50,954 nucleotides of DNA from Candidatus Omnitrophota bacterium (GCA_030691625.1 JAUYDX010000034.1:1-50954); one strand, 5' to 3'. Counted from the first letter of the stretch, positions 4,334 through 41,784 are shown. Numbers and translations are program-made. Notes: generated by a model from the letters alone, not told the origin.

Positions 4334-4429
4334 CTTCTCGACTCTGCTACCGTAACCTGCTCTCGTGACCGCTCGAAGAATATTGTTCGAGCGGTCACTG
4401 GAACGCTCCGCGAGAACAAAGTCGAGAAC
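4334..4429. repeat. Family A doublet (reverse unit 4334-4378 + forward unit 4385-4429)
   Basis: CTTCTCGACT-N25-CCGCTCGAAG then GTTCGAGCGG-N25-AGTCGAGAAC. Confidence 0.93.
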
Positions 4430-4430
4430 A

Positions 4431-4598
4431 TTAAAATAGGGTGTAAATGAACGGCGCTACGGCTGACGACTGGGTAAAAAATATCAATAAGCCGAAAAGT
4501 AAAAGCACCGCCACTATAGGAATCATCCACCAGAGTTTTCTTGCCCATAAAAATCTGAAAAGTTCGCCTATTATCTTGAATCTTCCTTTAATACCCAT
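4431..4598 (-). CDS. 55-aa DUF5989/SxtK-like small membrane protein
   Basis: Manual translation MGIKGRFKIIGELFRFLWARKLWWMIPIVAVLLLFGLLIFFTQSSAVAPFIYTLF; RKxWWxxP and APFIYTLF signature; below ORF-track length cutoff. Confidence 0.88.
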   Translation of the reverse strand: MGIKGRFKIIGELFRFLWARKLWWMIPIVAVLLLFGLLIFFTQSSAVAPFIYTLF

Positions 4599-5122
4599 TC
4601 CACAGCCTCCGTCAGGTCTTTTTTTATAAAATCAGGTTTATGCTGCCATTTTTTCGCGTCCTTAGGGTCTTCTTTACCGGTAAGAAGCAGGATAGTTTTA
4701 CATCCCATATTTTTCCCAGCCCCCACATCCAGCCTGGAGTCCCCTATAAAATATGCCTTTTTAAAATCTATATCCATGCCCTTAGTGACCTTTTTTATCT
4801 GGCCTGTATTGGGTTTCCTGCAATCGCATCCTGCGTCGCTCGCGTGAGTGCAATAAGAAACTGACCTGATCTTCCCGCCTTTTGCCTCTATTTCTTTAAG
4901 CATGTTTACGGTAATCTCATCCAGCGACCCCTGCGAGTAAAGCCCCTTAGCCACGCCTGCCTGGTTTGATATCACGAATATCTCGTAGCCGTTTTTATTA
5001 AGGAGTTTTATAGCGTCTATCGCGCCAGGCATAAACTCAAACTCTGCCCAGGATTTTATATAATCCCCAAACCCCGGATCCCTATTGATCACGCCGTCTC
5101 TATCCAAAAATATCGCTTTCAT
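4571..5122 (-). CDS. gmhB: D-glycero-D-manno-heptose 1,7-bisphosphate phosphatase (HAD IIIA)
   Basis: FLDRDGVIN, ISNQAG, CxH..CDCRKP, IGDS; start may be 5137. Confidence 0.9.
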   Translation of the reverse strand: MKAIFLDRDGVINRDPGFGDYIKSWAEFEFMPGAIDAIKLLNKNGYEIFVISNQAGVAKGLYSQGSLDEITVNMLKEIEAKGGKIRSVSYCTHASDAGCDCRKPNTGQIKKVTKGMDIDFKKAYFIGDSRLDVGAGKNMGCKTILLLTGKEDPKDAKKWQHKPDFIKKDLTEAVEWVLKEDSR

Positions 5123-5144
5123 CCCGTGTTTCCCCATTTCGCCC

Positions 5145-39022: not shown

Positions 39023-39801
39023 TTTCTTATCGTCCAGAAATCTGCGGAAAGGGTTTCGAGGTATTTGTACGGCATGGTGAAGTAGCCGTCCTTACCCCAT
39101 TCGCTCCCCCAGGAATTACGCACAAGGAACCTCTCATCCTTCTGGTTGTACCCCACTGCCAGGACAGCGTGGCCGCCGAGAGGCTTTTCCTTTTTCCCGG
39201 GCATATTTACTTTGCCTGTCCTTGCCACTCTCTGCGTTTGAAAACTTTCATACACCATAAAGCCAAAGACAAAAGGAAACCCGTCTGCCAGGCAGGTAAG
39301 CATCTCGCTTAAATTGCTTATGCGGTGATAGGATTCTATGCAATGTTTTTTAGCTTCTCTGTAGCATTTTTCAGGAGGCTTTCTGGTAAATCTCTCTATT
39401 AAATACGGCCACGTCTCTTCCCAGCACGCGCCTTCTTTCCTCAATGTCTTTATCCCATTCCTGAGCGACGCGCCTGAATCATAATCCACTGTGCCGTGCA
39501 AGACCCTCTCATTGTAATAAATGAAAAGCCTGCTTACATCCGTATAATCCGACTCCGTGAGTCGCCGGAGGCGACTCACGGAGTCGGATTGGTCAATACC
39601 TCTTTTGTCCAAAAACTCCAGATTCCCAGCCAGTGCATTTGCGGTACAGCTCCCAAGCGCCTCCTGATTTTCCACTTCCGAGCAAAATTCCCTAAGGTCC
39701 ACTTCTTTAGGAAGCCTCACCACGGGCCTTATCGCGCCGTAAAGATAATCCCTCTGGTCAGGCAGATCCGGCACCCAGCCAAAACCTCTCCTAACCTTCA
39801 T
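39019..39801 (-). CDS. Papain-like C1 cysteine peptidase
   Basis: NQ..LGSCTANA, GGHAVLAVGY, RNSWG..WGKDGY. Confidence 0.92.
   Translation of the reverse strand: MKVRRGFGWVPDLPDQRDYLYGAIRPVVRLPKEVDLREFCSEVENQEALGSCTANALAGNLEFLDKRGIDQSDSVSRLRRLTESDYTDVSRLFIYYNERVLHGTVDYDSGASLRNGIKTLRKEGACWEETWPYLIERFTRKPPEKCYREAKKHCIESYHRISNLSEMLTCLADGFPFVFGFMVYESFQTQRVARTGKVNMPGKKEKPLGGHAVLAVGYNQKDERFLVRNSWGSEWGKDGYFTMPYKYLETLSADFWTIRK
39546..39590. repeat. Family E perfect 45-bp palindrome in frame in the C1 peptidase
   Basis: AATCCGACTCCGTGAGTCGCC-GGA-GGCGACTCACGGAGTCGGATT; peptide QSDSVSRLRRLTESDY. Confidence 0.9.
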
Positions 39802-39818
39802 TTTGCCTCCTCAACCTT

Positions 39819-39863
39819 AAACAACTTGACACTTCAAACATTGTTACAAGTGTAAAGTTGTTT
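39819..39863. repeat. Family C, short form overlapping asnB stop
   Basis: AAACAACTTGACACTTCAAACATTGTTACAAGTGTAAAGTTGTTT. Confidence 0.9.
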
Positions 39864-41784
39864 AGTCGATGAACTCGTTATGCCAGAGCTCCAGGAATAA
39901 CAGGCTCCAGATCCTGGCGCCGTTATTGATCCTGGCGGCTGCGTGGTCATCGAGAACCTTTTTTATCGCCTCTTTCTTGAAATAGCCTCTACTCACAGCC
40001 TTATCGCTCAAAAGAATCCCATATGAATAATCTTTAAGCTCTTTTCTGAACCACGCGTCAAGGGGCACGCCGAATCCCATTTTGCCGCGGGAGAGTATTT
40101 CTTTAGGCAATGCCTTTGAAAGCGCTTTTTTAATAATATATTTTAATTTTGTGCCTTTTATTTTCATTGCGCTTGGCATGGCGGCGCAGAATTCCATCAT
40201 TTTATGGTCGAGAAACGGCGAGCGGCCTTCTAAGGAATTAGCCATTGTGGCAATGTCCATTTTCACAAGCAGGTCGTCGAGGAGATTTGTCTTTATATCA
40301 GTAGACATTACCATGTCCACGATATCTTTAGAGCCGCATTCATTGAATGCCTTGTCTAAATAGGCAAATGAGCTCCTACCAGCCATTTCTTTATTAAATC
40401 CGTCGCTAAATAAATTTTCCTTTTCAGAATCCCTGAATATCGTTACCCAGTTATAATGCCTTTCCCTGTACGGCTTCTGGGACATTACTAAAAATCTCCT
40501 GAGCCTGGTTTTAAAATCCTTGAATTCCAGAGATTCCGGGATTTTTCCTATAATGAGTTTTATTATTTTTTCCTTAAAAGGAAACGGCGTATTTTTTATG
40601 AGTTCAGCGTATCTCGCAGCCATAAACCTTTCGTATCCGCCGAAACACTCGTCTCCGCCGTCGCCATTTAAGGCCACAGTCACTTCTTCGCGGGTCATCT
40701 TTGCCACGTAGTAACTCGGAAGAGCTGAAGAATCAGCGTATGGCTCGTTATAATGCCATACGAGTTTCGGGAGGAGCTCTATCGCGTTAGGCTTTACTAT
40801 ATATTCGCGGTGTTCTGTCTTAAACCGTTCAGCAATGATCCTCGCGTATTTAAGCTCACTATATTTCTCCTCGTCAAAACCTATTGAGAAGGTCTTCACA
40901 GGCTTGGAGCTGAGCCTCGCCATCATATACACGACAGCGCTTGAATCTATGCCTCCGCTTAAAAACGCTCCGAGCGGCACATCGCTTATGAGGCGGATTT
41001 TCGTACACTCTTCCAGTAAATCCAGCGATCTCTGGCAGTATTCGTTTTCCGATAATTTCAGTTTTCTGGAAAAATCCAGGGCCCAGTATTTCTCGAGCCT
41101 GATATTGCCCTTTTCATAAATCATAAAATGCGCCGGCGGGAGTTTCATAATACCCTTAAACATCGTCTCAGGGGTAGGTGTATAGCCATAGCTAAGGTAA
41201 TCTGTAATGGCAGGCCTATTAACTTCAGCGTTCACTTCTGGATCCTGTAAAATCGCCTTGATCTCTGAGGCAAATATCAGAATTTGATTTTTATAGGTAT
41301 AATAGAGGGGTTTTTTGCCAATCCTGTCCCTCGCGATAAATAGCATCTCTCTGCGGCTGTCCCAGATAGCAAAGCTAAACGGACCTCTTAAATACTTAAG
41401 GCACTCCACGCCTTTTTCCTCATAGAGATGTAAAATCACCTCTGTATCAGTGTGCGACTTAAAAACATGGCCTTTTTTTACAAGCCCGTCTTTTAATTCT
41501 ATAAAATTATAAATCTCGCCATTTAAAACTATCCAAAGCGAACCGTCTTCATTACTCATCGGCTGGTGCCCGGCAGGCGATAGATCAATAACAGCGAGCC
41601 TTCTGTGTCCAAAACCTATGCTAATACCGTTCGAGCGGTCCCGAGAGCCAGTCACGAGAGCAGAGTCGAGAACCCACACCCCCTCATCATCCGGCCCCCT
41701 GTGCGTAAGCACTCCGCACATCTTCCTAATGAGTGCCTCGTTCACATTCCCATTCAAACTAATCTTCCCGCATATCCCGCACAT
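39862..41784 (-). CDS. asnB: Asparagine synthase (glutamine-hydrolysing)-type amidotransferase
   Basis: MCGICG start, HRGPD, HRRL, NGEIYN, LSGGIDSS, GDGGDE. Confidence 0.93.
   Translation of the reverse strand: MCGICGKISLNGNVNEALIRKMCGVLTHRGPDDEGVWVLDSALVTGSRDRSNGISIGFGHRRLAVIDLSPAGHQPMSNEDGSLWIVLNGEIYNFIELKDGLVKKGHVFKSHTDTEVILHLYEEKGVECLKYLRGPFSFAIWDSRREMLFIARDRIGKKPLYYTYKNQILIFASEIKAILQDPEVNAEVNRPAITDYLSYGYTPTPETMFKGIMKLPPAHFMIYEKGNIRLEKYWALDFSRKLKLSENEYCQRSLDLLEECTKIRLISDVPLGAFLSGGIDSSAVVYMMARLSSKPVKTFSIGFDEEKYSELKYARIIAERFKTEHREYIVKPNAIELLPKLVWHYNEPYADSSALPSYYVAKMTREEVTVALNGDGGDECFGGYERFMAARYAELIKNTPFPFKEKIIKLIIGKIPESLEFKDFKTRLRRFLVMSQKPYRERHYNWVTIFRDSEKENLFSDGFNKEMAGRSSFAYLDKAFNECGSKDIVDMVMSTDIKTNLLDDLLVKMDIATMANSLEGRSPFLDHKMMEFCAAMPSAMKIKGTKLKYIIKKALSKALPKEILSRGKMGFGVPLDAWFRKELKDYSYGILLSDKAVSRGYFKKEAIKKVLDDHAAARINNGARIWSLLFLELWHNEFID
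41629..41673. repeat. Family A unit in frame in asnB
   Basis: GTTCGAGCGG-N25-AGTCGAGAAC; peptide [15 protein letters not shown] between RGPDDEG and GHRRL. Confidence 0.9.

Follow-up and report, generated by a model that had tools for sequence, protein, structure and literature searches.

The 50,954-nucleotide (nt) stretch analysed here, whose full length we call the window, comes from a Candidatus Omnitrophota bacterium (GCA_030691625.1, JAUYDX010000034.1:1-50954; genome G000, 1.44 Mb in 101 contigs), and all of its genes lie on the minus strand. Our subject is a family of short repeats in this DNA, the family A units, in which two conserved boxes, TTCGAGCG and AGTCGAGAA, enclose a variable interior, together with the gene of a small GIY-YIG nuclease that sits between two such units. 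One further base stands on either side of a unit (S and S'), giving a C..G form and a G..C form, and the long interiors belong to two sub-families, S1 and S2. Exact matches to TTCGAGCG-N(20-40)-AGTCGAGAA number 17 in the window, 9 forward and 8 reverse, always with a spacer of 26 nt, and the pattern has no match in any of 100 dinucleotide-preserving shuffles of the window; single boxes are also enriched (TTCGAGCG 23 times against 1.5 expected, AGTCGAGAA 18 times against 0.25). An 18th unit is a short variant with an interior of 9 nt. Sixteen of the 18 are intergenic and two lie within genes. A first-pass annotation of the same DNA had listed 17 full units and a short variant at 28492, and both entries were recovered, the coordinates of the full units agreeing once 1 is added for the flanking S base; our 26-nt interior is its 25 nt plus an R base that it had placed in the box.

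The nuclease gene encodes a single-domain, UPF0213/Ssn-like protein of 90 amino acids (aa), in which the Pfam match spans profile positions 1-77 of 78 (Table 1). The closest solved structures by sequence, 1zg2 and 1ywl, are both UPF0213, and an NCBIfam search with the nuclease returned no family. The gene is single-copy in the genome and lies at the exact centre of a tail-to-tail doublet, with an S1 unit 11 nt upstream of its ATG and an S2 unit directly at its stop codon; 168 nt from this filled doublet there is an 'empty' one whose left arm is identical. Close orthologs at 75-82% identity were found in G004, G009, G048 and G045 (three genera), and the window gene and all four of these have inward-facing units on both sides at distances of 0-14 nt, with interiors that vary between genomes. 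Among the matches listed for the 1.5 kb to either side of the gene, G000, G004 and G009 have mutually unrelated neighbours, and G009 and G048 share one side. In G048 only three exact-box units occur in 1.7 Mb, all at most 1.5 kb from the gene.

Unit numbers range from 0 to 347 over 38 genomes of the bacterial family. A completeness of 90% is reached by 22 of these; the ortholog occurs in every one of the four that have 40 units or more, compared with one of the 18 that have fewer. High unit numbers are confined to genomes with the nuclease gene, and the gene lies between inward-facing units. We also surveyed homologs in a public collection, taking one genome per species and counting a unit if it lay at most 150 nt away and had complementary S bases. 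Of 17 homologs at 50% identity or more, two of which are the same loci as in G004 and G048, 15 had units nearby, versus 1 of 63 below 50%, and flanking on both sides in the canonical orientation was seen in 11 of the 17 versus none of the 63. The homologs' hosts are Candidatus Omnitrophota and several Patescibacteria lineages, and a near-length search of a large protein database gave more than 120 clusters of clade members (82-107 aa), many on contigs of about 1 kb. The link to the GIY-YIG protein that the first-pass annotation had suggested is thereby upheld, by the bracketing of orthologs, the homolog survey and the relation of unit numbers to gene presence. The gene could instead be a passenger, captured by or landed in a doublet without acting on the units, whose spread would then be due to another host or element function. 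Its single copy, the many other genes similarly bracketed by C..G and G..C units and four unit-rich genomes in which no ortholog was detected would all suit a passenger. We nevertheless consider this unlikely, as the bracketing recurs in all five close orthologs and in 15 of the 17 nearer homologs, across two phyla, one genome has its only three units at the gene, and the four exceptions are 60-86% complete, repeat-flanked genes being easily lost at contig breaks, of which the G045 ortholog, truncated by a contig end, is an example.

Within the window most units are paired as inverted doublets of the two interior subtypes, an arrangement already recognised in the first reading (Table 1). In the doublet nearest the start of the window the two units share an AATATT centre (gap GAATATTG); it is flanked by two minus-strand genes and lies 10 nt upstream of the ATG of the gene starting at 4325. 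The segment 7800-7894 is duplicated, 100% identical, at 7968-8062, and the interior of the short unit, AGCGAAGCG, supplies a second CGAG module and a GAA loop.

Table 1. Family A units, the nuclease gene and a second repeat family in the window
Feature	Coordinates	Strand	Details
90-aa single-domain GIY-YIG nuclease gene, UPF0213/Ssn-like	8061..8333	-	Pfam PF01541, residues 6-79, E 1.6e-15
Left arm of filled tail-to-tail doublet	7976..8060	+	partial unit and S2 unit 8018-8060, G..C form
Right arm of filled tail-to-tail doublet	8345..8434	-	S1 unit 8345-8387 (C..G form) and 37-nt partial tandem copy 8398-8434
Partial unit (box 1 and S2-like interior, without box 2)	7808-7849		part of 7808..7936
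Empty tail-to-tail doublet	7850-7936		S2 unit 7850-7892 (+), one C, S1 unit 7894-7936 (-)
Head-to-head doublet	4334..4429	.	S1 unit 4335-4377 (-), C..G form; unit 4386-4428 (+), G..C form
Tail-to-tail doublet	13061..13149	.	S2 unit 13062-13104 (+), one C, S1 unit 13106-13148 (-)
Tail-to-tail doublet	13983..14071	.	S2 unit 13984-14026 (+), one C, S1 unit 14028-14070 (-)
Head-to-head doublet	17315..17413	.	S1 unit 17316-17358 (-), 11-nt centre, S2 unit 17370-17412 (+)
Head-to-head doublet	28438..28519	.	S1 unit 28439-28481 (-), 11-nt centre, short unit 28493-28518 (+)
Head-to-head doublet, 34-nt centre	33502..33623	.	S1 unit 33503-33545 (-), S2 unit 33580-33622 (+)
Single S2-type unit in glycosyltransferase gene (37844-39022, minus)	38303..38347	+	in-frame reading VLDCVRNLKQHVRSN
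Single S1-type unit in asparagine-synthase-like gene (39862-41805, minus)	41629..41673	+	in frame, 15 residues
Second palindromic family	5943-5992, 27288-27331, 34679-34726, 39819-39863

Genome-wide comparison of 158 non-overlapping units with their flanks revealed an element that is longer than the boxes and directional, consisting of AATATT, base S, TTCGAGCG, the interior, AGTCGAGAA and base S'. The AATATT leader occupies positions -7 to -2; 100 of the 158 have it without mismatch and 140 with no more than one, T stands at -5 in 157 of 157 units, and no conservation was seen 3' of S'. In 151 of 158 units S is complementary to S' (G:C in 84, C:G in 67), and the boxes therefore pair with each other: the base of the unit is formed by S:S', TTC/GAA, a tandem G.A/A.G mismatch and a G-C pair. 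Beyond this base there is often a bulged T and a second CGAG/CGAG module, followed by a distal arm whose extent runs from 1 nt through a short, perfect stem capped by a GNA loop and a 26-nt S1 or S2 module to a nested unit. The proposed register is supported by covariation at two places, namely the pair beside the tandem G.A (G-C 56, A-T 9 and C-G 5 of 88 relaxed matches at GIY-YIG loci of two phyla) and the inner pair of the second module in 30 short units (G-C 23, T-A 3, A-T 2, other 2). The relaxed pattern, which omits the S:S' rule, does no better genome-wide than chance (256 matches versus 210-232 in shuffles) and served only for the pair counts at these loci. Perfect stems of 4-7 bp are present in 28 of the 30 short units, built from 15 different arms, with GAA, GCA or GTA loops in 21. 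The TCGA/TCGA register preferred by ViennaRNA was rejected, as it leaves the covarying S and S' unpaired and cannot form in the Patescibacteria variants, in which the second TCGA is missing. With DNA parameters, 131 of 158 units have the more stable fold on the top strand, and the G.A pairs form only on the strand as written, the complement having C.T pairs. GNA triloops and tandem G.A pairs are hallmarks of very stable DNA hairpins.

The 26-nt interiors comprise 54 S1 units, 39 of them in C:G form, and 36 S2 units, 35 of them in G:C form, and each sub-family consists of two 13-nt direct repeats. The heavy interior divergence described in the first-pass annotation needs a qualification: copies lie 25-27% from the consensus of their own sub-family, but the interiors are not free sequence, several positions being nearly invariant and the 13-nt direct repeat being internal to each. 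The absence of indels holds inside the window but not genome-wide, where lengths of 27 nt (9 units) and 25 nt (3 units) also occur. The boxes are, as claimed, far more conserved than the interior (about 0.1% versus about 25% divergence); in frames allowing up to three box mismatches, none was found in 90 units, one in 2 and two in 1. No base-pair covariation was detected within S1 or S2 interiors, in which the top mutual-information pairs are neighbours; these interiors fold weakly, and a reading of them as conserved hairpins is not supported.

From the constant spacing in the window it had been proposed that a protein or fold measures the 35 bp between two TCGAG boxes, as a double-stranded DNA-binding protein or fold gauging a fixed distance would. 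All 17 long window units are indeed of one length, and 26 nt is also the genome-wide mode, found in 90 of 164 box pairs. The genome-wide histogram, fixed beforehand as the test, is broad, however, with interiors of 25 or 27 nt in 12 pairs, of 1-20 nt in 54 and of 33-68 nt (nested or duplicated units) in 8; the short interiors include 9 'empty' units with 1 nt, 15 with 9 nt and 30 with 13-20 nt, and in other genera of the bacterial family almost all of the units listed are short forms. In addition, differing interiors flank the same gene or occupy the same intragenic site across species, and the boxes covary as a stem: because they pair together as the base of a hairpin, the geometry is independent of interior length. 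A measured distance is thus scarcely credible, and we infer that the exact 25-nt interior noted in the window reflects two locally amplified sub-families. A proposed contrast with repetitive extragenic palindromic (REP) sequences, in which alone the hairpin sequence itself would be conserved, also falls, since the stem is the conserved part here too.

Dispersed over at least 40 contigs, the 158 units comprise 27 that stand alone, 64 clusters of two and one cluster of three. Of the two-unit clusters, 55 are head-to-head and 9 tail-to-tail, with a tenth tail-to-tail pair inside the three-unit cluster; the head-to-head pairs centre on a shared or partly shared AATATT with gaps of mostly 8, 11 or 14 nt, and a single base separates the units in 7 of the 10 tail-to-tail pairs. 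Between co-directional genes the C:G form is co-oriented with the genes in 33 cases versus 10 and the G:C form anti-oriented in 44 versus 10, counts that rest on simple open reading frame (ORF) calls and in which the directions of transcription and replication are not separable. Many other genes in the genome likewise have a C..G unit just upstream of the start codon and a G..C unit just downstream of the stop. As a side observation, CCCTCGAC..GCTCGGGA recurs in doublet centres and in long interiors (window 33546-33579; contig C14, 3190-3239; contig C89, 2723-2772) and appears to be one more small hairpin module that nests within family A units.

Such an arrangement raises the possibility of an RNA-level element that acts in operon transcripts as a processing site, stabiliser or terminator in the form of folded RNA. 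Most units do lie between co-directional genes, with a form tied to gene orientation, and C..G units end a few nt upstream of ribosome-binding sites or start codons. Yet doublets carry one unit per strand, so that only half are in the stable G.A sense in any transcript, units also occur inside genes and lack a downstream T-run, the Rfam covariance models gave no match in the window at the gathering score, and the GNA triloops and tandem G.A pairs mark stable hairpins of DNA; we judge an RNA role very unlikely. Integron attC sites offer another comparison, as they share the conserved inverted boxes, an extrahelical base, a variable centre and a folded single strand in function, and the central parts of many lengths and the genes bracketed by sites would fit attC-like recombination sites of a cassette system with a tyrosine recombinase. 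Against this, the units are dispersed among core genes on the many contigs mentioned and form no single array, no integron integrase was found, Phage_integrase matches in the genome are limited to three (one a fragment and two of about 295-299 aa, of seemingly Xer-like length), and it is the GIY-YIG gene rather than any recombinase that tracks the units, which makes an attC-like system highly improbable.

Comparison with related genomes revealed that the units are mobile. At the orthologous gene junction, G006 and G009 do not have the doublet found at 4335-4428. Translation of the asparagine-synthase-like gene runs through the unit at 41630-41672, which is an insertion relative to the G006 and G003 orthologs; G004 and G009 carry units at this same site, but their interiors are quite different. 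The glycosyltransferase includes the translated unit 38304-38346, where the G009 and G004 orthologs also carry units, in G004 a whole doublet in frame, and the G011 and G012 orthologs lack boxes; part of this unit seems to replace native helix codons, and the history of the site is ambiguous. From this insertion polymorphism and the in-frame insertions in genes it follows that the units move, and insertion in frame, which the unit length had been said to permit, does occur. Genome-wide, 24 of the 158 units are surrounded by open frame for 60 codons or more in both directions, although some of these cases may be two genes read through an open doublet, and reversed units recurrently lie in the frame VLD...RSN. 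The region of 12.9-14.2 kb was compared with G009, which has no boxes there and whose intergenic alignment is too poor to define ends. No target-site duplication was found at the flanks of the listed units or at the filled-versus-empty junction. Contigs of one DNA sequencing run, maybe that of the source sample, break at the repeats, and one joint proved to be a cross-match from another doublet. At the glycosyltransferase site of G012 (L028, locus 1538-1634) there is, separately, a perfect 26-nt palindrome, GTAGGGCAGGTTT AAACCTGCCCTAC (split at its centre), without boxes. A miniature inverted-repeat element (MITE) derived from an insertion sequence was also considered and rejected, with neither a target-site duplication nor a transposase-bearing parent element found. 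The Rickettsia palindromic elements (RPE), which Ogata and colleagues reportedly described in 2000, are inserted in frame in protein genes and translated as extra segments; they share with family A units the presence of palindromic repeats in frame within coding genes and differ from them in sequence and length, and RPEs are not known to be linked to an enzyme.

Mobile palindromes of this type recall REP sequences, their doublets (REPINs) and bacterial interspersed mosaic elements (BIMEs), with which family A shares imperfect palindromes, inverted doublets, set linkers and a conserved 5' tag; as with REP-associated tyrosine transposases (RAYTs), the repeats flank a single-copy enzyme gene, and a folded single strand is presumably recognised. 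The enzyme here is, unlike a RAYT, a hydrolytic GIY-YIG nuclease and not a Y1 transposase. One might therefore suppose that the units are REP- or REPIN-like elements mobilised by a RAYT-type Y1 (HUH) transposase, with the GIY-YIG gene among them by chance. The short palindromic units in inverted doublets and intergenic DNA, the insertion polymorphism and the three Y1_Tnp (PF01797) matches in the genome are in keeping with this. None of the three Y1 genes, however, has units beside it, and one is bordered instead by fragments of another palindromic family; 36 of the 38 family genomes have Y1_Tnp regardless of unit count, among them genomes with no units and 4-5 Y1 genes; and the association with the GIY-YIG gene is specific and spans phyla. 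Mobilisation by a Y1 transposase is thus quite unlikely. This other family, with palindromes of about 48 nt (AAACAACTTGACA...TGTAAAGTTGTTT), has about 160 sites in the genome and is more abundant than family A; partial copies lie on both sides of a Y1_Tnp gene (G000 contig C23, 822-1097), and the family may be this organism's true REP/RAYT pair.

A closer precedent is found in the Ssn nucleases (Chenal et al. 2025, Nat Commun 16:2388, PMC11893778), which we cite here from the main text of that paper. Ssn proteins are single-domain GIY-YIG proteins of about 94 aa (CDD cd10448), defined by membership of the cd10448 clade or by a BLASTP match to Neisseria meningitidis SsnA with E<1e-10 at 75% cover, and hairpin repeats (NTS, or SRM in the wider sense), present in hundreds of copies, lie on either side of their genes; Rickettsia is among the SRM-rich genera, and 2% of NTS are intragenic in N. 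meningitidis (PMC11893778). SsnA binds the hairpin only as single-stranded DNA (ssDNA) and not as the reverse strand, duplex or RNA, cuts a few nt upstream of it in a reaction for which the conserved 5' flank is required, tolerates hairpins whose loop is removed or lengthened and, in N. meningitidis, reduces transformation by repeat-bearing DNA; its authors compare the arrangement of repeat, gene and repeat with insertion sequences and with RAYT/REP (PMC11893778). A GIY-YIG domain protein is also listed among the genes exchanged by groundwater Patescibacteria (PMC12455944). Omnitrophota, Patescibacteria and UPF0213 are unnamed in the main text of PMC11893778. Literature searches on GIY-YIG together with REP, REPIN or miniature inverted elements, and on UPF0213/YhbQ, returned nothing relevant, and a search on SsnA/GIY-YIG from 2024 on returned the Ssn paper alone.

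Set beside that account, the system described here has in common with Ssn/SRM a single-domain GIY-YIG protein of about 90 aa whose gene is flanked on both sides by hairpin repeats, tens to hundreds of mostly intergenic copies in genomes that carry the gene, a conserved non-palindromic 5' flank that sets direction, a tip or loop that is not conserved and a patchy distribution among relatives. It differs in the motif, AATATT-S-TTCGAG..CGAGAA-S' with tandem G.A in place of the GTCATTCCCGC..GCGGGAATC of Ssn, in a distal arm that runs from 1 to more than 30 nt and sometimes holds nested units, in the 24 of 158 units in long open frames (against the 2% of N. meningitidis NTS in genes) and in its hosts, Omnitrophota and Patescibacteria, which that main text leaves unmentioned. 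Other small GIY-YIG paralogs were noted in the same bacterial family (loci L085 in G035, L093 in G017, L081 in G016, L092 in G038 and L077 in G007). Two of them have NTS-like GTCATTCCCGCGAAAGCGGGAAT hairpins on either side and one has a GTCATTGCGAG...GAAGCAATC hairpin on either side; two follow a tRNA-like 3' end of which a second copy lies downstream. The 90-aa protein is 39% identical to one NTS-flanked paralog (E 5e-15).

Taken together, these results make it probable that the family A units are ssDNA hairpin motifs, the cognate repeats of the GIY-YIG nuclease at 8061-8333 in an Ssn/SRM-like relationship, and the system is best read as a variant of the kind first described in 2025, with a different hairpin motif. 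By analogy with SsnA, the 90-aa protein would bind the invariant hairpin base and leader on the folded top strand of ssDNA and would cut in or near the AATATT leader. The distal arm would not be read by the protein and so would be free to drift, grow or be swapped, which could account for the invariant boxes around a variable interior, although this explanation of the contrast is not firm.

Several points weigh against this interpretation. The published SRM pattern, HGTCWYN(0-2)YYVSBRHN(0-5)WNVSBRGN(0-2)RNCYNB, has two hits in the genome, none of them on units, with 3-7 in shuffles. The signs for a place of the protein in the Ssn clade (cd10448) point both ways: a tree joins the 90-aa protein to the NTS-flanked paralogs with support of 92/90, a placement that carries a long-branch warning, profile scores are higher with UPF0213-like paralogs (82-89 bits) than with NTS-flanked ones (53-56 bits), and the GIY-to-YIG spacing of the protein is the shorter, UPF0213-like one. 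A close ortholog was not detected in four unit-rich genomes (36-133 units; G005, G003, G036 and G043), and the related genomes compared are non-independent samples. The orientation dependence of the closing pair is not predicted by a nuclease model. Binding of ssDNA and the position of the cut are carried over to the 90-aa protein from SsnA, and a hydrolytic nuclease alone cannot paste DNA, so that the spread of the units lies outside the model.

The nuclease may have some part in that spread. We put forward, as a tentative extension, that the GIY-YIG nuclease also drives the spread of the hairpins and is thus a nuclease-driven counterpart of RAYT/REPIN. It would nick the folded leader and stem, upon which host repair or replication would copy units beside other units and into genes, and nick-induced conversion between copies would keep the boxes identical while swapping interiors. 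Spread of this sort would explain the divergence of about 0.1% in boxes versus about 25% in interiors, the different interiors at one orthologous site, and a module of the gene plus two units moving between Omnitrophota and Patescibacteria.

If the proposed pairing of units and nuclease is true, the Ssn-type systems would gain a second hairpin-nuclease pair that is clearly different, from two little-known phyla whose members are ultra-small bacteria of groundwater. The naturally occurring units, which range from 1 nt through short stems and 26-nt modules to nested units, are suited to testing which parts of a hairpin such nucleases read, and if the protein cuts ssDNA at its motif it would offer a new specificity for ssDNA tools. 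The genomes also hold comparative evidence that the repeats move, including in frame into enzymes, a question that the main text of the Ssn paper leaves open. For annotation, the units explain contig breaks and odd inserts of 15-17 residues in Omnitrophota and candidate phyla radiation (CPR) proteins.

Three further features of the window were noted. A GC-rich hairpin, CCCTCACCC...GGGTGAGGG, lies at 3505-3556 inside an MGDG-synthase-like ORF (3165-4325); it has further copies in the genome and in several related genomes is found at 88-97% identity. A HAD-hydrolase-like gene at 4431-5146 is seemingly interrupted, its ORF ending at 4571 and similarity to the coding sequence of relatives extending to about 4431, which could reflect a frameshift, a pseudogene or an assembly error. 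Finally, G+C is 0.35-0.40 at 42001-50000 versus about 0.44-0.47 elsewhere in the window.

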